Under the pieces are notes generated by a model. That model was not told the origin of the DNA. It searched no databases and saw nothing but the letters and a program-made list of their open reading frames with translations. From an uncultured Gemmatimonadales bacterium (lineage in GTDB: Bacteria > Gemmatimonadota > Gemmatimonadetes > Gemmatimonadales > GWC2-71-9), in assembly GCA_963828735.1 (NCBI GenBank), contig CAWHFW010000005.1, positions 2,464,001-2,528,000 of the forward strand: a stretch of 64,000 bases of DNA. The letters run 5' to 3'. How positions within the stretch are numbered: position 1 is the first letter of the stretch; every line of letters begins with the position of its first letter. Positions 855 through 59,336 of the stretch are shown here, piece after piece. The position numbers were made by a program, and so were the translations under genes.

Positions 855-1090
855 CAAACTCTAACATTTGAGTGAGTAAAGTACGGCAAAGTCCAGCATG
901 AAACCCAGCAAACTCCAGCATCGGGTGACACGAACTCGCGCAAATGACTGCAAGTTGCTGGAATTCGGCTGGTTCTGCGGGTCCCTCTGGATCAGGAGAG
1001 TCCTGGTTCGAGCCCAGGAGGGGCAATGAAGCCCGGCAACGACTTAGCCGTTGTCGGGCTTCGTCTATTTACCCGCCTGCCGTAGGTTCT
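855..1090 (+). repeat. tRNA-Gln(CTG)-3'-half att-like junction J1 (no T-loop insert)
   Basis: Left arm; CTCTGGA-TCAGG-AGAGT-CCTGG-TTCGAGC-CCAGG-AGGGGCA-A at 985-1026; hairpin 1028-1062; GCCGTAG motif. Confidence 0.92.
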
Positions 1091-1099
1091 CTGCTCTGC

Positions 1100-1345
1100 C
1101 TAGCCTACAATCCGCAGCTGTCTCGGAGCGTTCATCACCCGGAGCATCGACGCCTCATCGGTCTGCTGGTAGCACGTGAGACGGGTGTTGGTGTCTCTCC
1201 AACCCCCAGTTGCTTTCACGTCAACCAGTGGGAGATCCTTCCGCTCCCGTAACCCTTCCGCCGGAACGGATGCCAAGCACCTCCCTTCAGGTGTTCCAGA
1301 CCGGCTTTCTGTTCCGCCACGAGGAGTTGTTCTCCAAAGATCTCG
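1100..1345 (-). pseudogene. tyrosine recombinase C-terminal remnant (frameshifted)
   Basis: Two frames join as GGAWHPFRRK / ERKDLPLVDVKATGGWRDTNTRLTCYQQTDEASMLRVM (HxxR...W...Y). Confidence 0.75.
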
Positions 1346-1361
1346 CGGGGCCGGAGTCGCG

Positions 1362-2123
1362 TCAGAGTGTGGGAAAGATCGTGTGGGTGTGAGGTGCTCG
1401 TACACTCGCCCTGCCACACTCGCCCTGCCACTCCACGAGGTGGCGGCCGGGTTGCATGAGAACCTCGGCTGCGGTCGGAAACGGACTCCTATGGTGTACG
1501 CCGTCCCGAGGATCGTAAGAGCCTTGGCAGCCCTTTGCCGGGAGGCATGACCCCCGTCCGATTATCCTCCAGCTGCCCGCCGCAACTCCCGGGCGGCGAC
1601 AACTAAATCCAATGTCTGCACCCGCATCGTGCGACTCAGTTTCCAGTGCCAAGGCGAGCTTGCTCAATCCGGCGTGCGCCCGCACGATCTCAATCTCAGC
1701 GGCGGCCGCCAGGTCGGTGGCGCGGGTGATGGCGTCACGCACCGCGTGGTGGAGGTCGTCGGCGGTGAATGGTTTGAGTAGCACCCGGACGGGAGTGTCC
1801 GACGACTCGATATAGGGCACCGCGTCGGGATCGGCGGACATGCAGAGAAGGGCGACGCTCGGCCGATACCGTCTCAGCGTTTCGGAGACCTGACGCCCAT
1901 CAATTCGCGGCATCGAGAGGTCGGTCAGGACCAGATTGAACGGCTCGGTGCGCGCTTGAATGAGTCGCAGTGCGGACTCACCGTCCGGAGCCTCCTCGAC
2001 GTGAAAGCCTTCGGCTTCGAGCATGCGGCGGAGGATCCCGCGCACCGACAGGTCATCATCGACCACTAGCACGGTGGCTCCATACCAGATCGGACCGTGG
2101 GCCGTGGTAGGAACTTCGGCCAT
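1362..2123 (-). CDS. response regulator receiver protein
   Basis: VLVVDDD, VLTDLSMP and LLKPF motifs; probable frameshift near 1640, true stop likely near 1562. Confidence 0.85.
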   Translation of the reverse strand: MAEVPTTAHGPIWYGATVLVVDDDLSVRGILRRMLEAEGFHVEEAPDGESALRLIQARTEPFNLVLTDLSMPRIDGRQVSETLRRYRPSVALLCMSADPDAVPYIESSDTPVRVLLKPFTADDLHHAVRDAITRATDLAAAAEIEIVRAHAGLSKLALALETESHDAGADIGFSCRRPGVAAGSWRIIGRGSCLPAKGCQGSYDPRDGVHHRSPFPTAAEVLMQPGRHLVEWQGECGRASVRAPHTHTIFPTL

Positions 2124-2232
2124 GTGGCATCTGCCGGGAGTGGGTTACCGGCGCGTGACTGGGCTACCTGATGCTAACGCCGTTCGAAGTGTTTGTCACG
2201 AAACCGAGCCGACCACGACGAGCCCAACCTGA

Positions 2233-2451
2233 TCATCCAGCGTGCCGGCTAGCGCCAGTGCTTCTTCCTTGTCTCCAGCCGTGAACACGACGTAGCCGGA
2301 CTTCGCAAGCATCCTGGCCGTTTACGGCCGCCCCAGCCTCTTCCTGGGCGTTGAAAGGAAGGCCGTCTGCCTCGTCGTGTATCCGGTGGTGCACTTTCGA
2401 CTCTATGACCTGGTCGATCGTCATTTTCTCCCGTTCACGGGTAGGCAGCAT
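2233..2451 (-). CDS. small hypothetical protein
   Basis: 72-aa ATG ORF filling an intergenic gap; no recognised motif. Confidence 0.3.
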   Translation of the reverse strand: MLPTREREKMTIDQVIESKVHHRIHDEADGLPFNAQEEAGAAVNGQDACEVRLRRVHGWRQGRSTGASRHAG

Positions 2452-2579
2452 GTTCGAGGTGCGTCTGCGCGAGCCCGGCGACTACCCTTCGTCAGCCATA
2501 CTTTCGCAGATGCCACCAAGGAGGCGGTCGGGGTGCTTCGCGTCCTCCCCCCGTGTCGCGGGACGGTGAGGGCCGATCG

Positions 2580-2924
2580 ATGAAGGTCTACGATCCTGCG
2601 ATCGTCGCACGAGAGGCGTTTGCCGCGCACCCAGCGCGACCGGCCATGGCCGTCGTGCACGACGCACCGGACGCCCGGCTCGTCGTCTTCCGCCTCGCCG
2701 CGGGTCAAGCCGTCCCGGTACATACCTCCGTGTCCTCGGTGGTGCTCCACGTCCTCTCGGGGTCGGGGCTGGTGAGCAGCGCCGATGGCGAGCGTGATGT
2801 GCGCGCCGGCATGGTCGTTGCCTACGAGCCCCAGGAACCTCACGGGATGCGAGCGCTGGCCGAGTTGATCGTGCTCGCCGTCATCGCCCCTCGGCCGGCA
2901 AGCCGCCGAGGCCCTTTGGAGTAG
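2580..2924 (+). CDS. cupin domain protein (copy 1)
   Basis: VPVHTS...LHVLSGSG...EPHGMRA; near-identical to 10396-10743. Confidence 0.85.
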   Translation: MKVYDPAIVAREAFAAHPARPAMAVVHDAPDARLVVFRLAAGQAVPVHTSVSSVVLHVLSGSGLVSSADGERDVRAGMVVAYEPQEPHGMRALAELIVLAVIAPRPASRRGPLE

Positions 2925-2960
2925 CGCAGCTGGAATTTCCCAAGCGCTGGCCGTCTAGGC

Positions 2961-3045
2961 AGCCCAGGAGGGGCAATCAAGCCCGGCAACGACTTCGGTC
3001 GTGCCGGGCTTCCGCCAATCTGGTGTGTGAGTCAGTGAGTGAGTT
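2961..3045 (+). repeat. partial junction (tRNA 3' end, terminator, GTGAGT motifs)
   Basis: AGCCCAGGAGGGGCAA, hairpin AAGCCCGGCA..TGCCGGGCTT, GTGTGAGTCAGTGAGTGAGT. Confidence 0.85.
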
Positions 3046-3282
3046 GCTTCGCAGATTCCCGCGCGGCGCAGCGCGATCTCGACTGGGCTCGCTACAGAAA
3101 TACGGGGGCGCGGCGAGCAGGTCCAGCAGCTCGAGGGCCGGAGGATCTGCGCAGCAACGGTACGGCGGAGCTTGGCGCTCGTTACCTTTCCTCGGGAGGT
3201 GCTGTACGTCTATAGGTGTCACTGTTCTTGCAGCCACGGCGTGTGTGATGCGCAACGAGCAGGCCGCGGAAAGGAGCTCATC

Positions 3283-3636
3283 ATGACTGGGCCGACGCCT
3301 CACCTGTCGAAGGAACTCCCGCCCGGGACCCAGGACTACTTAGCGCATAGGCTGGACGGTGCGCGCGATCTCTACCTGCTGGCGCTGGCTTTGGGCGACC
3401 GCCCGGAGGGGTCCGCTCTCGTCGGGCGAATGATCCGTGAGGCCCGCATCCACTTCGCGGCAGTGATCGAGGAAGCGCGGATCGCCGGGCTCGCCACGGG
3501 CGCTATCGCCGTGATGCTCGGCAAGCGGAACATCGAGTTGGCCGACAGCATCCGGCCCGAGCTGTGGGCGGGCGTCGAACAGCTCCTCGCCGAACGAGCC
3601 GCCCGCAAAGTACCGGCGCGGCGCGGTCGGCCCTGA
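3283..3636 (+). CDS. hypothetical protein
   Basis: ATG after AAGGAG RBS; 117 aa; closely followed by next gene. Confidence 0.65.
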   Translation: MTGPTPHLSKELPPGTQDYLAHRLDGARDLYLLALALGDRPEGSALVGRMIREARIHFAAVIEEARIAGLATGAIAVMLGKRNIELADSIRPELWAGVEQLLAERAARKVPARRGRP

Positions 3637-3649
3637 CCGCGGAGGGTGC

Positions 3650-4105
3650 ATGGAGGATGAGCTGCAGCAGTTGGTCGAGAAGGACCGCATCATCGACACC
3701 ATCAACCAGCTGTTCATCAGCACGGACACCCGTGACTGGCCGACGGTGCGGGCCTGCTTCGCCGACACGGTCGACTTCGACATGACATCGCTCCCGGGGG
3801 GCAAAGCGAGCCAGTTGACGCCGGACCAGATCGCCGCCGCATGGGAGGAAGGCCTTCGGTCACTCCAGGCCATCCACCACCAAGTCGGCAATTACCGAGT
3901 CAACCTCGAGGGCGAGCAGGCGACGGCCTTCTGCTATGGCACCGCCTCCCACTACCGGCCGACGCGGTCCGGACGGAACATCCGCGTGTTCGTGGGCAGC
4001 TACGATCTCCATCTACGGAGCGTCGAGGGTCGCTGGCAGATTGATGGTCTCCGCTTCACCCTCAAGTACATGGATGGCAACGCAGAGCTCGAGAAGGGCG
4101 AGTGA
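3650..4105 (+). CDS. SnoaL-like / NTF2 family protein
   Basis: DTRDWPTVRACFAD...HHQVGN...GRWQI pattern. Confidence 0.85.
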   Translation: MEDELQQLVEKDRIIDTINQLFISTDTRDWPTVRACFADTVDFDMTSLPGGKASQLTPDQIAAAWEEGLRSLQAIHHQVGNYRVNLEGEQATAFCYGTASHYRPTRSGRNIRVFVGSYDLHLRSVEGRWQIDGLRFTLKYMDGNAELEKGE

Positions 4106-4228
4106 TCCGTCGCTGGACTGCACATCGATCGCCTTCACCCGTTCACGTCGAGCGACGCTTCATCGACCCCGCACTGCTTCCCTACGCGCAAGTCGGCCTT
4201 CGGATTGGAAGTCGCGGAAAGAAGGCAG

Positions 4229-4492
4229 CAAACCGTGACATCTGAGTGAGTGAAACACAGCAACGTGCGGCACGAAATCCATCAAACGCCAGCATCGGGT
4301 GACACGAACTCGCGTGAATGCGTGCAAGTTGCTGGAATTCGGCTGCTCACCATGGCCCCTCTGGATCAGAAGAGCCCTGGTTCACCTTCGGTGGCCTTCG
4401 GCTCGAGCCCAGGAGGGGAATCAAGCCCGGCAACGACTTCGGTCGTGCGGGGCTTTCGCCTATCTGGGGGTGTGTGAGTTAGTGAGCGAGTT
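4229..4492 (+). repeat. att-like junction with 21-nt T-loop insert
   Basis: Left arm, core at 4359, insert 4383-4403, terminator, GTGTGAGTTAGTGAGCGAGT. Confidence 0.9.
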
Positions 4493-4513
4493 GCTTCGTG
4501 GATTCCCACGCGC

Positions 4514-4700
4514 TCACTTGTGACTCGGACTCGCCGGGTCAGTGCGAGCGGTCGGGGATCGCTCGAACTCGACCACCGACCGCAGGGTGTCGTCGTCGCA
4601 CTGCCGATAGCACTGCTGCAATGTCCCGATGTCGAGCCAGCCGCCCCCCGCCGCCACACCCAAGGAGATGGGGGGTGCTCCATGACGCGCCAGCCGGCGT
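4514..4700 (-). pseudogene. degenerate tyrosine recombinase C-terminal remnant
   Basis: VAAGGGWLDIGTLQQCYRQCDDDTLRSVVEFER aligns by eye with the other integrase tails. Confidence 0.65.
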
Positions 4701-4701
4701 A

Positions 4702-6075
4702 TCACTTCTCGCGCGGCTCCGAGAGCCTTCGCTCGTACCAGGAGAGAAGTGGCCGTGCGCTGATGCCGTGCAGCAGGATGCTGGCCGCAACGACGGAGAT
4801 CGTCACCCCCGCCAGCTCTGTCGCGGCCGGACCCGAGACGCCGTGGCTCAGGGCGTAGCTCAGGTAGTAGAGGCTCCCGATTCCGCGAATGCCGAACCAC
4901 CCCATGAGCCAGCGCTGCGAGTTCGTGGTCGGCGTGCCCACGAGCATCAGCCGGGTCGCGCCCGGGCGGATCACCAGCATGAGCAGGAGCGCGAGGGGAA
5001 CGGCCCGCAGGTCCCAGTGAGTCGTGAGGCACACCCCCACCAGAACCACCAGCAGCAGTTCAACCAGTCGCTCGACCGTATCACCGAACGAGATCGTCTC
5101 CGCCACCAGCACGCCCGCGGCGACTGCCGGCTCTCGCAGCTCCTCCGCCCCGACGCTCGCGCCGACCAGGTCCTCCGCCGGCGGATGTGACGAGGCCTCG
5201 GTCGCGGGATCCCTTACTGGCGGTGCCGGGCTCCGTACCTGCTCGGGATGCGGCGTCTCCCGCGTCACGTGCAGCTCGGCGTGGCGCAGGCCGACGCCGG
5301 CGGCGAAGGTCGCCAGGAATCCCCACGCGCCGATGGTTTCGGCGCCGACATAGGAGAGCGCGATGAGGGCGAGCGCCAGGAAGTCGCTCGGCGCATGGGT
5401 GTCCTGCTGCAGGCTGCGGAGCCAGATGGCTACTCGCCCCACCGCGCGGCCGAGCCCGAAGCCCAGGAGCAGACCGACGGGCACCGCCCACACTACCCGC
5501 GCCAGCACCCATTCGCCGATCCAGCCCCCTGGGCCGCCGTGCTCCGCCCAGATCAGGGCGAGGACGACGAAGGGAAACGCCGCGCCGTCGTTCAACCCGG
5601 CTTCGCCCGATAGCCCGTAGCGCACCCGGTCGTGGTCGGTGGCGCTATCCACCTTTACCATGCTGGCCAGCACCGGGTCGGTCGGGGCGAGCACCGCGCC
5701 CGCCAGCAGGGCCATCGCCGGATCCAGCCCGAGCAGCAGGTGGGCACACAACGCCACGCCGAGGATGCTCGCCACCATCACGGGCCCGGCGAGGCGATAC
5801 GCCGCGACCCAGGCGGGGTGCCGCAACGGCAGCCGCAGTTTAAGCCCGCCCACGAAGAGCGCGACGATCACCGCGATCGCAGTGAGCCGTTCGAACCACG
5901 GCCCCGCCTCGCGCAGGTCGATGCGTAGCCACCCGAAGCCAAGCGGACCGATGGCCACGCCCAGCGCCAGATAGATAGCCGACGTCGAGATCGGGAGGTT
6001 CCGCAGATAGGCGGAGGAGAGTGCCATCAGCAGCAGCACGAGGCCGCCGAGCGCCATCCAGCCGAGAAAGCTCAT
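4702..6075 (-). CDS. cation:proton antiporter (CPA1/NhaP family)
   Basis: LAPTDPVLA, GEAGLNDG and GWFGIRGIGSLYY motifs; multiple TM segments. Confidence 0.92.
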   Translation of the reverse strand: MSFLGWMALGGLVLLLMALSSAYLRNLPISTSAIYLALGVAIGPLGFGWLRIDLREAGPWFERLTAIAVIVALFVGGLKLRLPLRHPAWVAAYRLAGPVMVASILGVALCAHLLLGLDPAMALLAGAVLAPTDPVLASMVKVDSATDHDRVRYGLSGEAGLNDGAAFPFVVLALIWAEHGGPGGWIGEWVLARVVWAVPVGLLLGFGLGRAVGRVAIWLRSLQQDTHAPSDFLALALIALSYVGAETIGAWGFLATFAAGVGLRHAELHVTRETPHPEQVRSPAPPVRDPATEASSHPPAEDLVGASVGAEELREPAVAAGVLVAETISFGDTVERLVELLLVVLVGVCLTTHWDLRAVPLALLLMLVIRPGATRLMLVGTPTTNSQRWLMGWFGIRGIGSLYYLSYALSHGVSGPAATELAGVTISVVAASILLHGISARPLLSWYERRLSEPREK

Positions 6076-6155
6076 TGTGCTCAACGCCCCGTTGGTTCCA
6101 TCGCGTGCGGGCTAGTCGGAGGCGACGGCGCTGCGGTGGAGCCGGCGTTGTTCGG

Positions 6156-7262
6156 CTACTCCTCCCGCACGCCGATGTCGGAGCGAACTGGCCTGGACCC
6201 GGGTCTCGACGCCGAGACCATGCCCCAGACCGCGATGAACATCGCGGCGATCACCGGCCCGAGGACGAAGCCGTTGATGCCGAAGATTGCTATGCCGCCC
6301 AGGGTGGAGATCAGCACGACGTAGTCGGGCATCCTGGTGTCCTTGCCGACCAGGATCGGGCGCAACACGTTGTCCACCAAGCCGATAACGAGCACGCCGT
6401 ACGCAGTCAGCACGATGCCCTGCCAGATCGCACCGGTCGCCAGGAAGTAGAGCGCGACCGGCAGCCAGACCAGCGCAGTGCCCACCGCAGGCAGCAGGGA
6501 CAGCAGGGCCATCAATGCGGCCCAGAGCGCCGGCGCGTGGATCCTCAGTAGCCAAAAGATCAGACCCCCGAGCGCGCCTTGCACGACGGCGACGACGAGG
6601 GTGCCTTTGACCGTGGCACGGATGACGCCGGTGAACCGGCTGACGAGCGTCCGCATTTGCTCCGGGTGCAACGGAATCGCCGCCCTGATACGCTCGACCA
6701 GTGCGTCGCCGTCGCGCAGCAGAAAGAACAGCAGGTAGAGCATGACGAACAGGCTGAGAACGAAGTTGAGCGTGTTCTGGCCGAGGTTCAACGCCTGTCC
6801 CGCAAGGAACTGGCTGCTCGTCCTCAGTGCAGCCGACAGCCTCTCCTGCACCAGGCCCAGGTTCGTTAACCCGAATCGGTCCAGCAGGCTCGTGACCCAT
6901 CCGGGCAACGCGTTGAAGGCCTGCTGAAGATACCGGCCGATGTCAAACTCTCCCGACTGGATCCTTTCGTACACGCCGGCCCCTTCCTGCACCAGCAAGG
7001 CCGTGATCAGCGTCAGCGGCAGAATCACCAGCACCAGGATCATCACGAGCGTGGCGAACGCCGCAAGCGTGCGCCGCTGCCGCATGGACCGCAGCTGCCG
7101 CCGGTAGAGCGGTGCGAAGACGATCGCGAGGATCACCCCCCACAGCACCGCCCCGAAGAACGGCCAGACGATCCAGGCGAAGGCGAGCGTTACCGCGACG
7201 AGCAGAACCAGGAACGTCTTGTCTTCGAGGGCGGGAGATTCCGCTTGGCGTGGCGGCGTCAC
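6156..7262 (-). CDS. AI-2E family transporter
   Basis: DNVLRPILVG...STLGG..FGINGFVLGP motif; GTG start inferred. Confidence 0.92.
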   Translation of the reverse strand: MTPPRQAESPALEDKTFLVLLVAVTLAFAWIVWPFFGAVLWGVILAIVFAPLYRRQLRSMRQRRTLAAFATLVMILVLVILPLTLITALLVQEGAGVYERIQSGEFDIGRYLQQAFNALPGWVTSLLDRFGLTNLGLVQERLSAALRTSSQFLAGQALNLGQNTLNFVLSLFVMLYLLFFLLRDGDALVERIRAAIPLHPEQMRTLVSRFTGVIRATVKGTLVVAVVQGALGGLIFWLLRIHAPALWAALMALLSLLPAVGTALVWLPVALYFLATGAIWQGIVLTAYGVLVIGLVDNVLRPILVGKDTRMPDYVVLISTLGGIAIFGINGFVLGPVIAAMFIAVWGMVSASRPGSRPVRSDIGVREE

Positions 7263-8075
7263 GGCGTCCGCTCGCACGGCGCCATCAGGTCCACCGTTGT
7301 CGCAGCACGAACGATGTTGCGCAGCATTCCGGCAATCACCATCGATGAATCCCCCACAGCCCATACCAATAGAACAGCCCCCGGACCGCGACGGGATCGA
7401 AGATCGCGGTCTGCCGTATGAGACTGCCGCCGGCCGCCCACGTCACCTCGAGCTGAAGCCATGCCCGCCCCGGCACCCGCATTTCCGCCGCGAGTCTGAG
7501 TAGCCGCCCGGGCTCCACCGCTTCCACCCGCCAGAAGTCCAAGGCGTCCCCCGGCATCACAGACGCCGGATCCCGCCGGCCCCGCCGCATCCCCGGTCCA
7601 CCCACCACGATGTCGAGAAGCCCACGCAGCCGCCAGAGAGTATTCCCATAGTACCAGCCCGCATCCCCCCCCCGATGCGCGAAATGGGCTGGAATGCCTT
7701 CCTACACCACTGTCGCGTTGCGCACCCGGTCTATCAGCTCTCGTCCCACCTGCGCGTGGACCGGCGAGACCAGCGCTGGCCAGAGGCTCGAGAGCCGCGG
7801 CGCGAGCAGGGGCACGGGAATCATTAGTCGTCTCAACCCTCGGAGCCGCGCGTACTCCCGCATGAGATCGCCGTAGGAAACCCGGTCGGGTTCCCCGATC
7901 TCGTAGACCACGCTCTCTAAGGCTGGGAGATCGAGGGCCTCCACCAAATACGCGGCGAGATCCTCGACGCCGATCGGCTGAGTCGGTGTGTACCACCCGG
8001 CTTGGGGTCACCATCGCCGGGAGCTTCACCACCAGTGAGCGGCCCAGCTCGAACGAAAGGCTGCCGGAGGGTGGG
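7259..8075 (-). pseudogene. YbjT-like NAD(P)-binding / DUF2867 protein, fragmented
   Basis: Fragments in several frames: TQPIGVEDLAAYL, YEIGEPDRVSYGDLM, GDALDFWRVEAVEPGRLLRLAAEMRVPGRAWL. Confidence 0.75.
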
Positions 8076-10743: not shown

Positions 10744-10773
10744 CGCAGCGGGAATTTCCCAGGCACTGGCCGC

Positions 10774-18511: not shown

Positions 18512-18517
18512 GGTCGG

Positions 18518-21724: not shown

Positions 21725-21726
21725 CC

Positions 21727-50448: not shown

Positions 50449-50460
50449 TTGGACTCCGTC

Positions 50461-51403: not shown

Positions 51404-52174
51404 CTACCCCACCGCCCGCAGCGGCTGCTCGCCGGTAGCGCCTTCCAGCGATTCCGTTCTCACCACGATCGCCGTGATGTTGTCCCGCCCGCCCCGGCGG
51501 TTCGCCTCCGTGATCATCCGGTCCACCCAGCGCTGCGGTTCACCATCCGAGCTCAGGATCCGGATGAGCTCCTCGTCCTCCAGCATCCCCGTCAGTCCGT
51601 CCGACGCCAGCAGGATGATGTCCCCTTGCTCCAACGAACCGAGGTAGATGTCCGGCACCACCTCGCCGCTCCCGCCGACGCAGCGGGTGATGATGCTGCC
51701 GGACGGATGGCCCCGGGCCTGGTCAGGCGTGAGCAGCCCCGCGTCCACCAGCTCCTGAACGTAGGAATGGTCCTTGGTGAGCTGGAGAAACTGCCCGTCG
51801 CGGAGAAGATACGCTCGACTGTCACCCACCTGCCCGATGAGATAGCGGCCCCCGAGCAGGACCAGCACGGTGGCCGTCGTCCCCATTCCCTGCTGGTGGT
51901 GCTCCGACAGGGCGCGCTCGAAGATCGCGTCGTTGGCGGCCCGGATCGCCGCTCGCATCCGATCGCTCGCCTCCTCGTCCGACATCCCGCGGAGCGAGCC
52001 GATGGCGCGGGACGTGATCCGCACCGCCATCTCGCTGGCGACTTCCCCGGCCGCATGCCCCCCCATTCCGTCCGCGACGATGAAGATCCCGCGCTCGGAG
52101 TGCATGAGGTAGCTGTCTTCGTTGCCCGACCTGACGATCCCGACGTCGGTGCGGGCGGCGCAGGTGAAGTGCAC
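51404..52174 (-). CDS. PP2C-type Ser/Thr phosphatase
   Basis: RSGNED, VADGMGGH, GDSRAY, SDGL, GRDNIT. Confidence 0.93.
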   Translation of the reverse strand: MHFTCAARTDVGIVRSGNEDSYLMHSERGIFIVADGMGGHAAGEVASEMAVRITSRAIGSLRGMSDEEASDRMRAAIRAANDAIFERALSEHHQQGMGTTATVLVLLGGRYLIGQVGDSRAYLLRDGQFLQLTKDHSYVQELVDAGLLTPDQARGHPSGSIITRCVGGSGEVVPDIYLGSLEQGDIILLASDGLTGMLEDEELIRILSSDGEPQRWVDRMITEANRRGGRDNITAIVVRTESLEGATGEQPLRAVG

Positions 52175-52265
52175 GGTGCCTCGTCGGCTCCAGGTCAGTA
52201 AGCAGGGCGGGCGACCGCCTCGTCGCGGGCGTCACGGTGCGGGGTCTTTCCGCGCCGCTCGCTGC

Positions 52266-52356
52266 TGTCATCCTGAGGAAACGCAGTGACCGACGGATTC
52301 ACTCGACCGAGCACCGAGCTTGGTCCGCCCAGGTCTTCGCTTCGCTCAGGATGACA
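52266..52356. repeat. REP/MITE-like palindromic element
   Basis: Perfect 12-bp terminal inverted repeat TGTCATCCTGAG / CTCAGGATGACA in an intergenic region. Confidence 0.7.
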
Positions 52357-52398
52357 AAGGTCGCAGGGTGCACTGTGAGGCATCCTGCGACCCACAGT

Positions 52399-53226
52399 TC
52401 ACCGGATCTCCTGCGGCTCTCCGTAGAGGAAATCGTCCATCACGACGAGATCGAGGTTGCCGCCGTCACTGAGATCCTGGACGTCCGCGCCGAGCGCCCG
52501 CTGGCCCGACGTGATCCGGACCTGCGCCACGATCGGCGACTCGAACACGACTCCGACGAAGGAAAATCCGGCCGGATCGCTCCGGACCGGCGCGTTGTAC
52601 CGGCCCAGGCTCCGGCCCTCGGCGTCGAGAAGCGTGATGGACGCCGCCCCCACTCGCTCGACATCGGAGAACACCAGCCCGAACCCGCGCGTCGCCGCCG
52701 GAGTGTCGGAGCCAGGCACGCGGAAGGTAGTGGTCAGCGACGCGCTGCCGACCGGCATGAAGGTCTTCGGGGCGCTGAAGGCGTTGAAGTCGTCGGCGTA
52801 GTTCGGGTTGGTGTCAGCGAAATCGTTGTCGCTGTTGTGGAATCCGCTGCCATCGGTGGTGAAGATCGCACCAGCCTTCACCGTGGTGTTGAAGAAGTCG
52901 CCCGGCATGTCCGCCGGAGCGCCGTCCCATTTGATTTCGCGCCGGCCGGCTTGCAGAGGCCCTGGTGTGCCGCCGTTCGGTGGATCGCCGAGCGCGGCGC
53001 GGAACTCGGTGAGCGTCGCAGTGAGATCGCCCGTCGCAGTAAAGACCCGGAACTCGGACCGACCCACGGCCGCCGAGGTGGCATATCCTCCCGGCCTGGC
53101 AATCGCCGCGGTGTCCCCGTCCCCCGGGCCGGTCATGTTGGAGTTGCGGTCATATCCGCACGCCGTTGCTGCCAACGTCAGGACAACGATCCCGGCGCCG
53201 AGCAGGCCGCCAAACTTTCCAGCCAT
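52399..53226 (-). CDS. hypothetical lipoprotein
   Basis: Lipobox ATAC; RREIKWDG...VMDDFLYGEP. Confidence 0.8.
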   Translation of the reverse strand: MAGKFGGLLGAGIVVLTLAATACGYDRNSNMTGPGDGDTAAIARPGGYATSAAVGRSEFRVFTATGDLTATLTEFRAALGDPPNGGTPGPLQAGRREIKWDGAPADMPGDFFNTTVKAGAIFTTDGSGFHNSDNDFADTNPNYADDFNAFSAPKTFMPVGSASLTTTFRVPGSDTPAATRGFGLVFSDVERVGAASITLLDAEGRSLGRYNAPVRSDPAGFSFVGVVFESPIVAQVRITSGQRALGADVQDLSDGGNLDLVVMDDFLYGEPQEIR

Positions 53227-53671
53227 GGTTCCCTCCCTGAGGTGAATAAGTCCCTGATGCCAAGCGTGTATCGCCAGCCGGCCAGTCAGACCCGTGGCCG
53301 CAGGCACAGCGTCCTTCGGTACCATGCGGCGCCAATATGGGAATGCCGCGGTCCGCGAACATCCGGCCTCGGTCCGGACTGGAGGCTCACGATCGCCGGA
53401 CGCGCGAGGGCGCCTAAGGCGGGGGTGGATCCCTGTCTGGAGTCGGAGGGCATGGCGATGTGCCGCCTAAGAGCCGTAGGTCGAGGTCTGTGGGTCCTAG
53501 CTCGTGGCTGGCAGGGTCTACGACCCGAGATCGACGACCTACGACTCGGCGGTGGGTATTGCGATCCAGGGCCCGAAGGGCTGCCGCGGCAACGAACGCG
53601 GGGCGCGTCGTCTACACGCTCGTATGGTGCCCAGCGCGCCCCCGTGTCTCGGGCCGACGTCGGAGAGGGTC

Positions 53672-53926
53672 GGCAAGCTTCGACGTCTGTGTGAGCAAAG
53701 GCGGGCAGAATCCAGCATTCAGCACAGCCAACTGCAGCATCGGGCGACACGAACTCGCGTGAATCGTTGCAGTTGCTGGAGTTTGGGCAGCTACTGCGTC
53801 CCCTCTGGATCAGGAGTGTCCTGGTTGACTTCAAAAGGTCGCCTTCGGCTCACCTGCGGTGGCCTTCGGCTCGAGGCCAGGAGGGGCAACTGAAAGCTCT
53901 GCAACGGATTTTGTTGTGGAGCTTTT
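53672..53926 (+). repeat. att-like junction with 45-nt T-loop insert, fifth terminator type
   Basis: Core at 53803, insert 53827-53871, AAAGCTCTGCAAC..GTTGTGGAGCTTTT. Confidence 0.9.
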
Positions 53927-54029
53927 CTGTTTTTCAGCTGCCCTTGGTGTGTGCTCCGCTGTGGGTTCCTGACCCGTTGCTGTCACGCGAGCTCAAGCCC
54001 CGCGCCGAGGATGAGCACGCGCCTCTTGA

Positions 54030-54695
54030 TCACGCCATCGCCGGCTGCGGGACGAGGCGAAGGTAAGGCTTCAGCTGTTTCCAGCCGTTCGGATAGAGGG
54101 TCTTGGCCTCATCGTTCGACACCGAGGGCACGATGATGACGTCCTCGCCCGGCTGCCAGTTGACGGGAGTCGCGAGGCGGTGCTTGGCGGTGAGCCGCAT
54201 CGAGTCGATGACCCGAAGGATCTCGTCGAAGTTTCGGCCCGTGGTCATAGGGTACGAAATGGTGAGCTTGATCTTCTTGTCTGGCGCTATGACGTACACC
54301 GTACGGACGGTCTGGTTGTCGGCGGCAGTGCGAACGCTGGCGTCTCCTTCTGTCGCGGCGGGGAGCATGTCGTAGAGTTTCGAGACGGCCAGCGTCGGGT
54401 CGCCGATCATCGGGAAGTTCGGGGCGACGCCCTGCGTCTCCTCGATGTCTTTGGCCCAGCCCTCGTGCTTGTCGACGGGGTCGACGGAGAGGCCGATGAC
54501 CTTGACTCCGCGCTTGTCGAATTCGGGTTTGAGCTTCGCCACGTAGCCGAGCTCCGTCGTGCAGACCGGCGTGAAGTCTTTGGGGTGCGAGAACAGGATC
54601 CCCCAGGCGTCTCCGAGCCAGGCGTGAAACGAGATCGGCCCGTGGGTGGTGTCGGCGCGGAAGTCGGGGGCGGTGTCGGCGATTCTGAGGGACAT
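54030..54695 (-). CDS. 1-Cys peroxiredoxin (Prx6 family)
   Basis: FSHPKDFTPVCTTE and GRNFDEILR. Confidence 0.95.
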   Translation of the reverse strand: MSLRIADTAPDFRADTTHGPISFHAWLGDAWGILFSHPKDFTPVCTTELGYVAKLKPEFDKRGVKVIGLSVDPVDKHEGWAKDIEETQGVAPNFPMIGDPTLAVSKLYDMLPAATEGDASVRTAADNQTVRTVYVIAPDKKIKLTISYPMTTGRNFDEILRVIDSMRLTAKHRLATPVNWQPGEDVIIVPSVSNDEAKTLYPNGWKQLKPYLRLVPQPAMA

Positions 54696-54828
54696 GGCTA
54701 TCTCCTTTTGGGTGTTGAGTCCGATTGCAAAGGGACGTTAACGACCGTACGTTCCCTGAGCGTTCCCCCAGTGCGCTCGGTCCGGTGACGCGGATTTGCG
54801 GGCGCGGGTGGCGCCTCAGGCAGGTACA

Positions 54829-56544
54829 ATGCGCGTCCAGATCCTCCTGCTCGGCCAGTTCCGTGTCAGCGTTGGCGACACCGTCATCCCCGCGGACGCC
54901 TGGCGCCGCGAGCGTGCCGCCGCTCTCGTGAAGCGCCTGGCGCTGCTCGCGCGACATCGTCTCCACCGCGAGCAGGCGATGGAACTGTTCTGGCCGGACC
55001 TGGACTCGGATGCCGCGGGTGCGAACCTGCGAAAGGCCATCCATTTCGCTCGGCGCTCACTGGGCGAGCACGACCTGCTCGAAGTGAACGGCGATATCGT
55101 CGCCCTCGCGCCGAGAGCCGAGCTCGTCATCGACACCGAGGAGTTCGACGCTGCCGCCAAGGCGGCACTCAGCGGCCAGGGTGGCAGCGAGTGCAAGCGA
55201 GCGGCGGACCTGTACGGCGGAGAGCTCCTACCCGACGACCGCTACGTGGAGTGGCTGGAGGAACCGCGGCAGCAGCTGCGGGAGCTCTACGCGCGAGTGC
55301 TCAAGACGGGCAAGCTGTGGGAGCGGCTGGTCACACTCGATCCGACCGACGAGCAAGCCCAATGCGCACTCATGCAGGCAGCGCTCGACGCCGGGAACCG
55401 CGCCGAAGCGATCCGGCTGTTTCAGCGCCTTCGGGAACTATTGCGCATCGAGCTCGGCGTGGGGCCGAGAGCCGCCACCATCGCGATCTACGAGCGCGCG
55501 CTCGCGATGTCGGGGGTCGCGCCCGTTAGTCCCGTCGATGGCATCCGCGCCTCTCTTGCCTGGGGGCTCGTTCATCTCCAAAGCGGTGATTTCGCGAAGG
55601 CCGAGAGCATCGCCAGGGAGACGCGCGACCTGGCTCTCGGGGCCGAGCTTGGGCGCGAGGTGGGAGAGGCCAGCGCGCTCCTCGGACTGGCCGCGCACAT
55701 GCGGGGCCAGTGGCGGGATCTATTCCTAACGGAATTCACGGAGTGGATTCGCGCCGCGCCGAAGTTCGCCTCGAACATGTTCGACGGACACCTGTGCTTG
55801 GCCCAGTTCTGTCTCTGTGGATCGAGCGGTCTCGAGGAGACGCGGAGCACTGCGCAGGAGCTGCTCTCGGTCGCGGAGCGCGAGGGCTCGGTCGCAGGGC
55901 GCGCGCTCGCGCTGGTGTGCCTGGGCGAGGCCGAGCTCTTCTCGGGCCGGCTCGATGAAGCCGAGCGGCTCCTGGATGAAGCCGAGCGCCTCCATGTCGA
56001 GAGTGGGACGGCCGCAGGGCGCGCGCTCGCTCTCGAGCGGCTGGCGGAGATCGCGCTCTTGCGTGGTCAGAAGTGGCGGGCAGGCCGCATTGTCCAGCGA
56101 GCGGAGCGTGTCGCCCAGACGAGCTGGCTAACGCCGCACCTCCTCATCCGTCTGAAGGGCCTTGCCGTGCAGACAGCATCGACCCCGGAAAAGGCCGCCA
56201 AAGTCATCCTGGAGGGCGATCGAGCGCTGGCGGGCGGGAGCAGCTGCCAACCTTGTTCGATGGGATTTCGTGCCGCGGCCGCGATAGCGCTCGCCGAGGC
56301 GGGCGAACTGGAACAGGTCGGCCGGCGGCTCGACGAAGCCGAGCGCCTGGCTGGCATGTGGAGCGGCGGCCCGTGGGTCGCGGCCCTGTGGGAGGCGCGT
56401 GGCGTGCAGCGCAGGGCCCAAGGCAGCGAAGAGCGAGCTCTGGCGGCTTTCAGCGAGGCGGCCGAACGGTTCGGGGAGCTGGGGCGGCCACTCGATGAAG
56501 CGCGCTGCCGGGGCCGGATGAAACTCGCTACCGCCGCCCACTGA
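54829..56544 (+). CDS. SARP/BTAD family transcriptional activator with TPR-like region
   Basis: LLGQFRV, LHREQ...FWPDL, YGGELLPDDRY; divergent from the peroxiredoxin. Confidence 0.88.
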   Translation: MRVQILLLGQFRVSVGDTVIPADAWRRERAAALVKRLALLARHRLHREQAMELFWPDLDSDAAGANLRKAIHFARRSLGEHDLLEVNGDIVALAPRAELVIDTEEFDAAAKAALSGQGGSECKRAADLYGGELLPDDRYVEWLEEPRQQLRELYARVLKTGKLWERLVTLDPTDEQAQCALMQAALDAGNRAEAIRLFQRLRELLRIELGVGPRAATIAIYERALAMSGVAPVSPVDGIRASLAWGLVHLQSGDFAKAESIARETRDLALGAELGREVGEASALLGLAAHMRGQWRDLFLTEFTEWIRAAPKFASNMFDGHLCLAQFCLCGSSGLEETRSTAQELLSVAEREGSVAGRALALVCLGEAELFSGRLDEAERLLDEAERLHVESGTAAGRALALERLAEIALLRGQKWRAGRIVQRAERVAQTSWLTPHLLIRLKGLAVQTASTPEKAAKVILEGDRALAGGSSCQPCSMGFRAAAAIALAEAGELEQVGRRLDEAERLAGMWSGGPWVAALWEARGVQRRAQGSEERALAAFSEAAERFGELGRPLDEARCRGRMKLATAAH

Positions 56545-56550
56545 AGGCGG

Positions 56551-56741
56551 AGTCGCGGGAATTGGGGTGGTTACAGCGGCCCCTCTGGATCAGGGGAGTC
56601 CTGGTTGACCTCAAAAGGTCGCCTTCGGCTCACCTGCGGTGGCCTTCGGCTCGAGCCAAGGGGGGCAATGAAGCCCGGCAACGAATCAGCTGTTGCCGGG
56701 CATCGTCGATTGCCTACCTGCCGTAGTTCCGCCGTAGTTTC
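56551..56741 (+). repeat. att-like junction (left arm truncated) with 45-nt insert and tandem GCCGTAGTT motifs
   Basis: Core at 56583, insert 56607-56651, terminator, GCCGTAGTTCCGCCGTAGTTTC. Confidence 0.9.
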
Positions 56742-56748
56742 TCGCCCT

Positions 56749-56800
56749 TCAGCTCCCCACACTTCGCAGTTCGGGGAGCATCCATCACCCGGACCATCAG
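56749..56800 (-). pseudogene. extreme C-terminal scrap of a tyrosine recombinase
   Basis: MVRVMDAP matches MLRVMNAP/MLRVMEAP of the 1100 and 9100 remnants, in the same position. Confidence 0.5.
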
Positions 56801-56821
56801 CACCTCATGGGTCTGCCGAGG

Positions 56822-57913
56822 TCAGAACGTGATCGACCGGATCCAGGCGGCGGAGGCGACGCTGGCGAGATTCAAATCGGGCAGCTTGGCCCGCAAGTCC
56901 TCCATGTTCTTGATCTGTTCTTTCAACAGGAAGGACTGGGTAACCAGGACACCGGGGAACACGACCTGCTTGCTGCCGAGTTGACCGGCCAACTGAAGGG
57001 CCAGCGTGCGGGTGACGGCGGCGCCGACCGCGCTCGGATCGGTGGTGGCGGTGGCCTTCCAGGGGCTGTCCTTCTTGGTCATCAGCTCGATGTCGGCGTT
57101 CGAGATGTCGATCCCATACGCGGCGACCTTCGATGCCCAGCTTGTTCTGTTCGATGGCTGAAACGGTGCCCTTGGTCAGCTCGTCGTAGGGAGCGAAGAC
57201 GGCCTTCACCCCGGGATGGGCCTTGAGCGCCTCGGCGGCGAGCCGCGCGTTGTCGGCCGCCACGGCGTGGCTGAACTTACCGACAGCGAACTTCTGGTCC
57301 CATTTGTGGTCGGCGACGAACTTCTTCCACACGACGTCGCGCCGCTCGAGCGGGGCGATGACGAACGGGTTCACATAGCCGACGGGGACACCGTCGCCGA
57401 TGTCCTTGGTCATCTGGGTGAGCACGAGGGTGGCGAGATCGGCGTCGTTCTGCGCGGTCTCGATGGCCTTGGGGGCACACTCGGCGACTTTGACGTCGTA
57501 CACCACGACGGCGATCCCGGCGTCGGTGGCCTGGTTGATCAGCGGGCACAGGGTGGCGGATCGACCATGGTCCACGATGATGCCGGCGACGCGGGACTCT
57601 ATCGCGGTTTTCATGTCGGCGGCCTGTCTGGCATCGTCGGCCCGCGCGTCGTAGAGCTGCATGCTGAAGCCGATCGCGTCGGCCTGCTGCTGTGGCGCCC
57701 TTGGTCCACAGCTCGAAGTAGTCACCGGCGCCGCTGTACTGGACCAGGGCGATCTTCACCGGCCCTTTGTCGAACGGACTCGGCTTCTCAGCCGTCGTCG
57801 GCAGCCGTATCGGTGCGAGCCGCACCCTGTTGATCGCGGTCGCGGTTCTGGGAGCAGGCCACGAGAAGGAGAGCAGTGCACAGCCCGAAGCTGGGAATCG
57901 TCTTGCTCCTCAT
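56822..57913 (-). pseudogene. sugar ABC transporter substrate-binding lipoprotein, multiply frameshifted
   Basis: Lipobox LVAC; KIALVQYSGAGDYF; GIIVDHG; VFAPYDELTKG; WKATATTDP across several frames. Confidence 0.8.
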
Positions 57914-57976
57914 TTGATCCCCCTTTCCGATGATCTGGGGTCTGGTGAGGCAAGAACTCGTAAGTCGCTGGCGGTC

Positions 57977-58049
57977 CAAACTACGACATCCGGAGCGAGT
58001 AAACCACGGCAGAGTCCCATAATCGGACCCGGCAAAGCCCAGCATCGGG
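57977..58049 (+). repeat. degenerate junction left arm only
   Basis: CAAACTACGACAT..GAGCGAGTAAACCACGGCAGAGTCC..GGCAAAGCCCAGCATCGGG. Confidence 0.7.
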
Positions 58050-58108
58050 GGAACGCCGAGACCGATCGGCTCGTTGTAGCTTCGCTATTGCAGCGGCGTC
58101 TCGCTCGT

Positions 58109-59062
58109 TCACTTGAGGAGTCCCCCGAAGCTGATGAACACGACGAATCGATTGCCCTCGAAGGTGGACCGGGCCCCCACGTCCCAGAGATACCGGGCCG
58201 TGATTGACCCGACGTAGGGCTCTTTGTACAGGCCGGTGTAGATCAGTTCCGGGCCCACGGTGTACAGGTGGTTCTTGCCGGGTGCCAGAGTAGCAGGGAA
58301 GTCGTTTCCACTATCCTCGCTGATCTTCCATTGACCTCCGTAAGCCACCCTGGCCTGGAGCTTGTCACCAAGGAGTTTCGCGCCCAACCCGCCCTCAACT
58401 GAGAGGATGTCCCCCGGCTTGAGGTCCTGGCCTTCCTTGTTGGTGTGGGTTTCGTAGGACACCAGCGCAGAAAGCTGATAGCGCTGGCCGGGGTCGAAGT
58501 AGAAGGTCGAGCCGCCGGACAGCTCGAAGGACCACATCCCAAGGCCCTTGTTCTCATTGCCGTTCGGTTCATAACTCCCGGTTGGAGCATAGAACCCGAA
58601 CCCGGCCATGTAGTCGGCCCGCGACGTGTGCCATCCCAGATTCACCGGCTGGACGTAGATGTCCGAAAGGCCGAGCGACGAGCTGGTAGCGAACCCGAGG
58701 CGGGGCACCTCCAGGGAGCTGGCGACCGCGGGCACGAGCAGCTGAAGTCCGTAGGTCCCGCCAAGCACCTTCCTGGGCGTCACGACCCAGGCGAAGAGCC
58801 CGAGCGAGCTCAGGGAAAGGTCGAAGGGCGTCGCGCTGCCATTGTGGTCTACGATGTTGTTTACGTCCCAATTCGCGTAGGTGAGTCCCAGAAGTACGGC
58901 CGGCGGTGGTTGGGTACCGGACTTGGAGCCCCAGGCCATCAAGGCGTGGGAGCCGGCGAGCTGCGCTTCCGACCGCCCGTGGCACAAGATGAGGAGAACG
59001 GCCATAGTGGCGCTGATACGCCGGCCCCGTCCCCGAAACCGACCCGACACTACGAAGGTCAT
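58109..59062 (-). CDS. SphA / Phenol_MetA_deg-like outer-membrane protein
   Basis: GTQPPP, GLSDIYVQPVNLGWH, YAPTGSY. Confidence 0.8.
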   Translation of the reverse strand: MTFVVSGRFRGRGRRISATMAVLLILCHGRSEAQLAGSHALMAWGSKSGTQPPPAVLLGLTYANWDVNNIVDHNGSATPFDLSLSSLGLFAWVVTPRKVLGGTYGLQLLVPAVASSLEVPRLGFATSSSLGLSDIYVQPVNLGWHTSRADYMAGFGFYAPTGSYEPNGNENKGLGMWSFELSGGSTFYFDPGQRYQLSALVSYETHTNKEGQDLKPGDILSVEGGLGAKLLGDKLQARVAYGGQWKISEDSGNDFPATLAPGKNHLYTVGPELIYTGLYKEPYVGSITARYLWDVGARSTFEGNRFVVFISFGGLLK

Positions 59063-59284
59063 GACCCTCTCGAAGTTGAGCTTTCCTTACGAGCTTGAAG
59101 CCCCCTTTCGACGCTTGCCAGTGCACCTTGGTTGATGTTTGAGTGGCTCCGTTTGAATGGCCCGCGCCAGGGTACTCCGTGGTTCTAAGATGGACTGCGG
59201 GTGGACAGGGAAGTTCGAGCGACTGAGTGGGAGATGCCCAGGTGACAAGCCTGGGCATCTCTTTCACCTGTCGGCCTCAGGCGT

Positions 59285-59336
59285 GAGCCCAGGAGGTCGA
59301 CTCGAAGGCTCGGTGGCGCTCACCGATGTCGGGCCC
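59285..59336 (+). repeat. degenerate partial junction
   Basis: GAGCCCAGGAGG then ACTCGAAGG...TGTCGGGCC, like the 28939-28978 terminator. Confidence 0.6.

Follow-up and report, generated by a model that had tools for sequence, protein, structure and literature searches.

Introduction

CIMEs are elements that retain att sites, have lost the genes for integration and transfer, and are stacked at the 3' end of a gene with chimeric attI junctions, as set out for ICESt1-ICESt3 accretion in the relevant sections of PMC5704250. The same sections document that CIMEs are captured and co-transferred by a related incoming element; the tandems described there consist of few elements, with conjugative helpers. 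In Dehalococcoides, several tandem islands lie behind one RNA gene, ssrA, within 100 kb. These islands use a serine recombinase and a 20-bp repeat; about half keep the integration module, and the 15 of 31 that lack it were proposed to be cis-mobilisable (PMC3146451, in the part concerned with tandem islands). Prochlorococcus tycheposon islands are seeded at tRNA genes and enlarge as one element after another integrates; older events can be recognised by partial tRNAs and integrase fragments, and the elements are rare and transient (bioRxiv 10.1101/2020.12.28.424599, the portion on these islands). The tandem tRNA islands of Islander show anticodon-loop crossover, displaced 3' fragments and tandem arrays. 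Tandems of at least three number only 4 among 3919 islands, and each member must have its own integrase, according to the passages of PMC4383910 on tandems.

The array presented here belongs to an abundant, little-studied group of soil bacteria. The process of accretion is known; this array is unusually large, and recent exchange between species is shown for it.

Results

The genome studied is G000, and the array lies on its contig C5. It starts at an intact tRNA-Ala(CGC)/tRNA-Gln(CTG) pair (G000:C5:2457616-2457781), 6.3 kb to the left of the window, the whole stretch of 64,000 nucleotides that was analysed, and its in-window part spans 848..59319 on the forward strand. Downstream of the intact tRNA-Gln(CTG), 17 co-oriented core-bearing junctions are spread over 63 kb, and the array holds about 20 small gene units. 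Fifteen cores lie in the window on the forward strand (985, 4359, 8984, 16275, 21719, 25694, 28898, 32182, 33374, 36382, 42942, 44740, 46736, 53803 and 56583), spaced 1.2-7.3 kb from core to core. Two further full junctions (C5:2459364 and 2462194) and decayed ones (C5:2538680 and 2564458) lie outside it. Thirteen of the 15 run on through the T-arm and acceptor to a stem-loop/T-rich terminator; those at 21719 and 25694 stop short just past the core.

Three junction profiles, built solely from genomes other than G000, identified 13 full type-A arms, a partial type-A arm at 56551, a type-B arm at 28762-28904, an isolated arm piece at 57977-58051 and acceptor pieces at 2961, 38378, 43523 and 50433, and each profile had 0 matches in six 64-kb Markov shuffles. 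Weaker junction pieces occur at 44899, 47661 and 59273, giving 20 clear and 3 weak copies in the window. These results bear out the sequence-only reading on the position and strand of all 15 CTCTGG(A) cores, their spacing, the 13 junctions that reach a terminator, the 23 full or partial copies and the derivation from tRNA-Gln(CTG), with the intact gene to the left of the window. The copies are clustered and co-oriented rather than scattered genome-wide in both orientations.

A unit consists of the tRNA-Gln 3' half, a terminator, cargo and a right arm of ~135 bp, and its two ends match those of small int-xis islands whose integration site is the tRNA-Gln(CTG) anticodon loop. Units are small and uniform (median 2.5 kb) and carry 1-8 genes each, on both strands. 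All junctions in the window are on the forward strand. Perfect tRNA halves are found at 848..1059 (core 985; type-A arm, 40-bp 3' half, terminator, type-B left sites), 8847..9059 (core 8984; type-B left sites) and 16137..16351 (core 16275). At 21585..21724 (core 21719) the tRNA half is deleted and the junction is joined to an integrase C-terminus, and at 25557..25712 (core 25694) the half is truncated and the arm is 97.7% identical to that at 8847. The junction with the type-B arm occupies 28762..28982 (core 28898). One T-loop insert is present at 4223..4453 (core 4359; 21 nt, about 4382-4402; type-A left sites), 32049..32282 (core 32182) and 33238..33468 (core 33374; micro-unit-type terminator). 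Two are present at 36246..36513 (core 36382; stacked, about 36405-36449), 42807..43072 (core 42942; one shortened, type-A left sites), 44603..44851 (core 44740; micro-unit-type terminator), 46600..46865 (core 46736; type-B left sites), 53668..53935 (core 53803) and 56551..56713 (core 56583; arm cut to the final 39 bp). Partial junctions matched by the profiles comprise acceptor strand plus terminator (2961..3020 and 38355..38436), a decayed acceptor with a micro-unit-type terminator (43523..43581), an acceptor alone (50430..50455) and an isolated decayed arm piece (57977..58051); a decayed acceptor/terminator piece at 59265..59319 is weak (9 bits).

Junctions farther from the tRNA are older: decay and T-loop inserts increase with rank, among genomes that are not independent. 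Of 22 junctions at rank 1, 14 have a perfect tRNA half, against 1 of 21 at ranks of 6 and above, which four genomes represent.

Seven C-terminal tyrosine-integrase remnants are found in the array, on the reverse strand behind junctions, placed as in intact elements. Six are in the window: 1118..1350 (frameshifted, about equally like types A and B, sharing 75% DNA identity with the left end that follows 8984), 4538..4783 (nearer type A), 9103..9462 (the longest, about 120 aa, 48% to the intact type-B integrase of G099), 21730..21849 (type A, 59% over 39 aa to P0001), 32347..32523 (type A, in-frame stop) and 47494..47589 (short and weak, E 8e-4). The window holds no intact integrase, and no transposase, phage or conjugation family was found among its 64 ORFs scanned against Pfam. 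The claim that such genes are missing was thus upheld, with the addition of the six remnants.

A dedicated cassette platform with a nearby integrase had been envisaged, but no full-length cognate integrase was found in G000 (97.5% complete) and no tyrosine recombinase match lies beside the tRNA. A resident helper integrase was rejected, as none of the 8 PF00589 matches in G000 is at the array. The two strong full-domain matches are probably XerC/XerD, judged by score, and the others are partial or broken and near other tRNAs. Intact int(+xis) lies directly behind tRNA-Gln in G099, G034, L192 and L211. The L192 element is primase-xis-int. Those of G034 and G099 carry int, xis, HTH and methylase/restriction-type cargo, with no primase among 18 ORFs scanned. 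Within 103 genus genomes, one has an intact integrase at tRNA-Gln(CTG), of type B, and no intact type-A integrase was found. G084 combines a type-A integrase with an internal deletion, type-A left sites and a type-A right arm.

The tRNA-Gln(CTG) site is fed by two or more integrase/arm families, A and B among them. The sequence-only reading of one arm family therefore does not stand: the arm at 28898 is type B, and type-B left sites follow 985, 8984 and 46736. Among 83 units with an A right arm, left sites were undetected in 64, A in 13 and B in 6, typed by simple motifs that may miss sites. An integrase remnant is present in 14 of 140 units. The TetR-SDR unit and the near-full, frameshifted type-A element L191 match at their left ends as far as the last base ahead of the arm sites. 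Arms within G000 are 68-98% identical, with conserved motif blocks and variable spacers, a pattern that resembles that of protein-binding sites. The arm was rejected as an ncRNA, since no junction matched Rfam and the fold showed no covariation (term -0.14 kcal/mol; two-sided change in 1 of 16 pairs, forward strand only), and as a promoter, since a sigma-70 scan of 700-17000 gave 1 site against 2.2 expected. The arm pattern had 0 matches in viral contigs, and P0001 just 2 weak unrelated ones.

Whole units recur from junction to junction in other species at 94-99.5% identity, at other ranks and often directly behind the tRNA. The right part of the TetR-SDR-hypothetical unit (1..984, forward strand; start C5:2462331) is 99.5% identical to a G115 unit directly behind an intact tRNA. 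The unit with a kinase-PD40 gene (33374..36381, forward strand) has counterparts in the same position in G108 (96.2%) and G012 (93.8%). A unit whose Ser/Thr kinase-TPR gene is on the reverse strand (25694..28897, forward strand) is 94.4% identical in G098, and the MFS-Cache transporter unit (36382..38377, forward strand) matches G112 at 97.9% and G042 at 92.3%, the junction of the G042 copy being free of T-loop inserts. Highly conserved core blocks are less similar in the same genomes: 90% (G115), 92% (G108 and G012), 85% (G098) and 88% (G112). Ordinary blocks, tested in G115, G108 and G012, reach 70-82%. These block identities replaced upstream-flank identity, which aligned only partly.

Sharing concerns single units rather than multi-unit blocks, and each unit brings its terminator along. 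The unit held in common with G108 and G012 begins at the tRNA half, and the upstream flanks do not align. Rank-1 units lack an integrase match in 19 of 23 cases (median 2.8 kb), frequencies being biased by the choice of compared regions for having matches. Where shared units are most alike, their arms differ more than their cargo does (9/140 vs 0.5%; 17/142 vs about 2%). The last 45 bp of the arm are no nearer than a random arm between G017 and G024 (rank 76 of 102), and the diverged proximal arm of G000/G115 is still the best match among 102 arms. At 13 of the 23 loci examined, the TetR-SDR cargo lies more than 1.5 kb from any junction. Multi-junction arrays occur in many other assemblies, fragmented ones included; seven junction matches lie in the 16-kb contig G017:C307. 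The tally of 84 of 103 genomes includes tRNA-only matches and is not an array count. The 103-genome tallies include G003, G063, G080 and G097, marked unpublished; the 76-region comparison leaves them out, and none of the conclusions depends solely on these four. That units are discrete mobile blocks, as had been proposed, agrees with their varying order and content in relatives; gene order is not invariant. Cargo is host-like (GC 0.61-0.69). Defence cargo was considered and rejected, as the PADLOC matches among 26 proteins are generic kinase domains and one DUF488.

The T-loop of older junctions is split by a nested 21-24-nt hairpin element, which is also present, identical, in Sphingomonadales palindromic repeats. 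It appears to be a separate mini-element targeting GT^TCGA. Counted exactly, the G000 inserts number 9 and 5, with one further copy shortened; the count by rank used a loose motif, with one false count at 25694 and one undercount at 42942. No mover was identified. A Y1 transposase was rejected, as none is present in G000; it occurs in 50 of 103 genus genomes, and 6 loci examined had no such hairpins at their ends.

Discussion

The units are stripped int-xis islands, CIME-like, rather than purpose-built cassettes, as indicated by the integrase remnants, the two arm families and the integrase-side sites undetected in 64 of 83 units. They derive from an integrative element, with remnants, matching ends and no intact cognate integrase in G000; they keep core and right arm, with left sites mostly undetected by simple motifs; and they follow one another at the target gene's 3' end, with chimeric junctions between them. 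Integrase-free rank-1 units common to several species bear only indirectly on joint excision and transfer with a neighbouring autonomous element. The array was thought not to be a described system, but tandem accretion of cis-mobilisable elements is already described (relevant parts of PMC5704250 and PMC3146451). Unlike the CIME tandems in those sections of PMC5704250, the array has 17 core junctions and ~2.5-kb units; its helpers are int-xis elements that lack conjugation genes (one has a primase), left sites went undetected in most units, and the unit pool spans species. Dehalococcoides islands are larger units (PMC3146451, same part), whereas here a tyrosine integrase, a ~135-bp arm and few remnants are found. 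Tycheposons carry their own integrase and have degenerate parts without clear boundaries (bioRxiv 10.1101/2020.12.28.424599, same portion), whereas these integrase-less units are sharp-ended and recur intact. Since Islander needs an integrase per member, arrays like this one would not be resolved into units, and island finders with that demand would overlook them (PMC4383910, as to its island definition). The results extend CIME accretion from a two- or three-element case to an array that is large and dated, and in which recent exchange across species is directly evidenced.

The array also works like an integron, but is not one. Chromosomal integrons have IntI, attI, attC and Pc, and stack small units with polarity, the newest beside a fixed site, from a pool common to relatives. 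The likeness proposed in the sequence-only reading extends to the polarised stack, with acquisition at one end (genomes not independent), the newest unit next to the fixed site and a pool shared by relatives. It does not extend to a resident integrase (IntI), attI, attC hairpins or a common promoter (Pc). No integrase match lies beside the primary site, and the cognate family is an ordinary island integrase. The junctions are double-stranded lambda-type att sites composed of arm, tRNA half and terminator, with no conserved covarying arm fold and no Rfam match. The multi-gene units lie in either orientation, with no sigma-70 excess, rather than as single co-oriented ORFs. Nor is this an IME or ICE: no own integrase with relaxase or T4SS was found among the ORFs scanned, and the VirB4 family was not found in G000. 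One intact helper (L192) carries a primase, like phage satellites; the arm is absent from viral contigs.

The best explanation, which we favour somewhat, is a polarised accretion array of CIME-like units, still exchanged between Gemmatimonadales species by hit and run. An autonomous type-A element would arrive and integrate at tRNA-Gln(CTG). It would later excise using its own left end and the retained arm of a downstream junction, carrying a resident unit, as in the documented capture of CIMEs by an incoming element (PMC5704250, same sections). In a new host the composite of helper and unit would enter the tRNA site, from which the helper would excise alone, leaving an integrase-less unit at rank 1. 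The visiting element would be rare. Homologous recombination between ~80%-identical arms could delete or swap units and leave hybrid arms, and the hairpin mini-element would insert later in displaced T-loops. Hit and run requires the right arm only, which accounts for the asymmetry between left and right arms. Neither an excised circle nor a helper-unit composite in two hosts was seen.

The main rival, which we consider rather unlikely, is homologous exchange alone. Transformed or transduced DNA would recombine between a left anchor, the tRNA-Ala/Gln genes or a junction, and the next arm on the right, the junctions being fossil att sites. Even where shared units are nearly identical, the match breaks off within the arm, and site-specific transfer alone does not predict an arm that diverges more than its cargo. 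G000 has comEC and a comM-type helicase, VirB4 and terminase were not found in it, the 103 genus genomes yielded no intact type-A integrase, and the cargo is host-like. However, homologous exchange replaces rather than adds, and therefore fits growth to 17 junctions and polarity less easily. The conserved motif blocks, the best-match arm of G000/G115 and the unit shared by G108 and G012 from the tRNA half onward also speak against it.

It is more doubtful that each unit leaves as its own circle, which an integrase supplied in trans would put back at the tRNA, like an integron cassette, the platform first proposed. Exact boundaries, small uniform size, sharing of single units and integrase-free rank-1 units are consistent with this. 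However, a lambda-type attP requires left arm sites, and most units show none; cis-mobilisation or homologous recombination fits better. G000 has no resident integrase, circles from distal units would bear a T-loop-damaged tRNA half, and no circle joints were found in four runs, in contigs that cannot show absence. Logan contigs of the 4 runs covered units of the first 20 kb in pieces only, and joints were discarded because their sides were short (mostly under 30) and lay in repeats. One-sided arm retention offers a simple test of how enzyme-less units travel, whether in cis, in trans or by homologous recombination.

Very improbable is a pure fossil, in which successive islands integrated, decayed and were inherited vertically with no movement now; remnants, truncated junctions and decay with distance agree with it, yet it is largely refuted by units that are more alike between species than the most conserved core block examined and that extend from junction to junction at different ranks. 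Hardly credible is an assembly or binning chimera of strain-variable islands, or an arm that is a structured RNA: G000 has 7 contigs and 5.2% contamination, and none of the Logan contigs listed bridged two junctions, but multi-junction arrays recur elsewhere (e.g. G017:C307), arms within G000 differ, T-loop inserts form an ordered gradient, and Rfam and covariation speak against an RNA.

More tentatively, soil Gemmatimonadales may share a genus-wide pool of small integrase-free units of common format, added singly behind tRNA-Gln(CTG) by a merely visiting recombinase, their mobility preserved by a conserved one-sided arm; this would be an integron-like collection with no resident enzyme. A cross-phylum 21-24-nt hairpin element, together with terminator micro-units of 65-85 nt, would target the T-loop, date junctions and perhaps lock older units in place. 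No mover is known for the mini-element, which is the same in Gemmatimonadales att junctions as in Sphingomonadales repeats. The literature searched, in which subscription papers are thinly covered and supplements lie outside, yielded no description of the insert or the array. REPs and other small palindromic repeats are likewise gene-less hairpins, of 20-40 bp; unlike the insert, they are not linked to a TCGA target or a tRNA T-loop in the relevant passages of PMC3733652 and PMC6006769, and TCGA has 0 occurrences in both main texts. Some REPs are reported in those texts to be nested inside other palindromes.

The tRNA-Gln array and its junctions

The array is a very large accretion array of the CIME type (cis-mobilisable elements without an integrase of their own) and carries a nested mini-element. 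The sequence-only reading had likened it to an integron; it does work partly like one, but it is not an integron. Nor is the principle new: CIME accretion (PMC5704250), the ssrA tandems of Dehalococcoides (PMC3146451) and tycheposon islands (10.1101/2020.12.28.424599) follow the same logic, as far as the accessible text of those reports goes. In the accessible part of the Islander report, tandems of at least three islands number 4 among 3919 islands (PMC4383910). A literature search returned no account of this array or of the T-loop insert described below.

A full junction comprises a right arm of about 135 bp, the core CTCTGG, the 3' half of tRNA-Gln and a terminator; a unit is the DNA from one junction to the next. 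All 15 cores first reported in the window are present at their positions, and the reported 23 junction copies are reached by adding three weak pieces to the arms and acceptor pieces found by profiles. Three profiles, built without the source genome (G000) from 84 type-A arms, 16 type-B arms and 82 tRNA halves, matched 14 A arms in the window, 13 of them full and one partial, together with a B arm, an isolated arm piece and four acceptor pieces, and nothing in six shuffled 64-kb controls. The copies are co-oriented as claimed; every profile match is on the + strand with a single exception scoring 10.6 bits. ARAGORN found no tRNA in the window. The intact tRNA-Gln(CTG) anticipated to the left does lie there, beside tRNA-Ala(CGC), at C5:2457616-2457781 of the source contig, on which the window occupies C5:2464001-2528000. 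Two further full junctions are located between this pair and the window, and two decayed junctions follow the window, at 75 and 100 kb counted from its start. The array has 17 core-bearing junctions within 63 kb.

Five stray junction pieces occur elsewhere on the contig, at 517, 721-723 and 754 kb. One (C5:517235-517393) is behind a tRNA-His/Trp/Glu/Glu/Lys cluster, three (C5:721337-722720) include both orientations, and one (C5:753626-753698) is behind tRNA-Lys(TTT). In the species-genome collection, the exact arm and core pattern matched 52 loci: 51 are titled Gemmatimonadales, Gemmatimonadaceae or Gemmatimonadota, and the other is a 3.6-kb contig titled Chloroflexota. The pattern had no match among viral contigs. 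One junction is near-identical in two species (L116, G099:C1:8202, and L096, G108:C1:9955; arm 139/140, flank 99.75%) and is positioned upstream of a second tRNA-Ala(CGC) and tRNA-Arg(CCG). In the array of L095 (G108:C2 near 390400), a second gene resembling tRNA-Gln(CTG) follows the first at a distance of 9.7 kb.

Units as stripped islands

The array units are stripped islands. A profile built from 13 related integrases detected seven C-terminal integrase remnants in the array, six of them in the window and all on the - strand. The full-length tyrosine integrase expected near the array did not materialise: by the same profile, G000 has no full-length copy of the cognate family. The remnants lie behind junctions on the - strand, which is the place of the integrase in intact elements. 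In G099, of the same genus, and G034, of another family, an integrase gene and an HTH_17 excisionase-like gene are immediately behind tRNA-Gln. Integrase reading frames of 404 aa are open behind tRNA-Gln at two loci (L192 and L211), the first of which also holds a primase, and deleted or frameshifted copies occur in G084, G019, G100 and L191. Such elements bear short direct repeats at both ends, of TGTGAGT type in family A (G084) and of another type in family B (G099). We take these repeats to be putative integrase arm sites and the block adjoining the core to be a putative IHF-like site, from general knowledge of such sequences. Strong profile matches were present in 8 of 103 genus genomes; three of the eight are at tRNA-Gln(CTG), and of these three only the one in G099 is intact. 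Other members of the family in relatives adjoin tRNA-Ala(TGC), Pro(TGG) and Gln(TTG), and a frameshifted xis-int pair of the family is beside tRNA-Ile in G000 (C5:597157-599240).

The 153 non-tRNA cores in 76 regions, chosen for having matches, carry 110 type-A, 19 type-B and 2 type-C arms, and the arms of the other 22 are untyped. Left sites, the integrase-side repeats at a unit's left end, were undetected in 64 of the 83 units with an A arm at their right end, and only 14 of 140 units had any integrase match. The first unit after the tRNA has no integrase trace in 19 of the 23 genomes with a tRNA and a following junction, a remnant in one, a broken gene in two and an intact gene in one; four more genomes with the tRNA, whose fetched DNA held no further junction, are outside the 23.

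Exchange of units between species

Sequence comparison provides evidence that units still move and were recently exchanged between species. Several of 144 units, whose median length is 2.5 kb, recur over their whole length in other species. The TetR-SDR unit (C5:2462331 to window 984) is at rank 3, counted from the intact tRNA, in G000 and at rank 1 in G115, with 99.5% identity. The kinase unit 33374-36381 has rank 1 counterparts in G108 (96.2%) and G012 (93.8%), and units 25694-28897 and 36382-38377 have counterparts in G098 (94.4%) and G112 (97.9%), respectively. A conserved core block (8-13 kb), chosen next to a Thr/Tyr/Gly/Thr tRNA cluster and presumably, by its position, the tuf-rpoBC region, is 90 (G115), 92 (G108), 92 (G012), 85 (G098) and 88% (G112) identical to G000, and an ordinary block is 70-82% identical in G115, G108, G012, G109 and G002. 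The terminator is part of the unit, and the neighbours of recurring units differ between genomes. Junction pieces are at one or both ends of the kinase unit in 7 of 9 other published loci; the remaining two are those matching at 80-82%. TetR-SDR cargo is carried by 53 of the 103 genomes. Of 23 loci inspected, 13 lack a nearby junction piece, which counts against a strict cassette view.

We lean, with modest confidence, towards a cis-mobilisation step by a visiting element. Such an element would bring Int and Xis together with a left end of its own, so that a downstream right arm would suffice; loss of the helper after transfer would leave the passenger unit at rank 1. Units that keep the right arm and have lost left sites and integrase are as cis-mobilisation predicts. 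Homologous exchange through the junctions is a less probable route. In six of seven pairs with cargo at least 90% identical beside the arm, divergence of the arm clearly exceeds that of the cargo; in the seventh the arm is almost identical. The excess over chance is strong in G000/G115 (binomial, 4e-8) and G017/G024 (5e-9), where divergence sits mostly in the last 45-65 bp; among 102 arms, the match for the diverged part ranks first in G000/G115 and 76 in G017/G024. Because arms exceed cargo in divergence, and do so near the end, they appear to recombine with one another, at transfer or later. Such hybrid arms, and the presence of both comEC and comM in G000, favour homologous exchange, but net array growth is less well explained by it. 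Circles mobilised in trans would yield the sharp unit ends, but the missing left sites make them improbable. In contigs of four public runs, a kind of data that may miss circles, no circle joint was seen and, among the contigs listed, none bridged two junctions.

The T-loop mini-element

In nine junctions of G000, a 21-nt double hairpin interrupts the T-loop at GGT^TCGAG (window, about 4382, 32205, 33397, 36405, 42965, 44763, 46759, 53826 and 56606), and in six of these a second hairpin insert is stacked to the left of the first. Both exact motifs are absent from the rest of the genome. Junctions of relatives have variants of their own, in stacks of up to four. Unit 36382-38377 carries inserts in G000 but lacks them in both G112 and G042, which indicates that inserts are gained in place. 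The junctions are also polar: among 72 non-independent junctions from 22 genomes, with inserts counted by a loose motif, perfect 40-bp tRNA halves fall from 14/22 at rank 1 to 1/21 at rank 6 or higher, and inserts rise from 2/22 to 16/21.

A scan for 21-24-nt double hairpins at GT^TCGA, a pattern that itself fixes the GT and TCGA flanks, returned 65 loci (L258-L322). Ten are in tRNA-Gln junctions; most others come from Sphingomonadales and other Alphaproteobacteria, where the insert lies within a palindromic repeat that is intact apart from it. Many insert hairpins show GNA triloops on the - strand, a loop type of high stability in single-stranded DNA. No mover of the insert was found: G000 lacks a Y1 transposase, and six Y1 loci examined in the genus have no such hairpins at their ends. 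The Y1-type (PF01797) genes present in half of the genus (L323, L324, L327, L328) have a conserved upstream neighbour in common and show no clear insertion-sequence ends, as domesticated genes might.

Micro-units without genes, about 65-85 nt long, were counted 25 times in 18 regions; they duplicate tRNA-Gln from the T-loop to the acceptor and add a terminator. Most close with a similar hairpin, and some sit behind intact tRNAs. Examples are L134 (G059), L110 (G057), L022 (G015) and the terminators after window 33374, 43523 and 44740.

Cargo

The cargo is ordinary, consisting of Ser/Thr kinases, transporters, SnoaL and cupin proteins, an ECF sigma pair, GH31 and peroxiredoxin, with a GC content of 0.61-0.69 (genome, 0.69). 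Five Ser/Thr kinase genes are at 22661-25423, 25728-28622, 33482-36184, 43646-44395 and 61063-62733; at least six relatives have counterparts of the first (79-88%) within their array regions. Units 985-4358 and 8984-16274 are related: they share a type-B left end with its integrase remnant (75%), and their cupin gene regions match at 93%. Upstream of an epoxide hydrolase gene (59386-60594) is a c-di-GMP-I-type riboswitch match (60695-60809, - strand) that scores 40.7 bits (E 4e-6), short of the gathering threshold.
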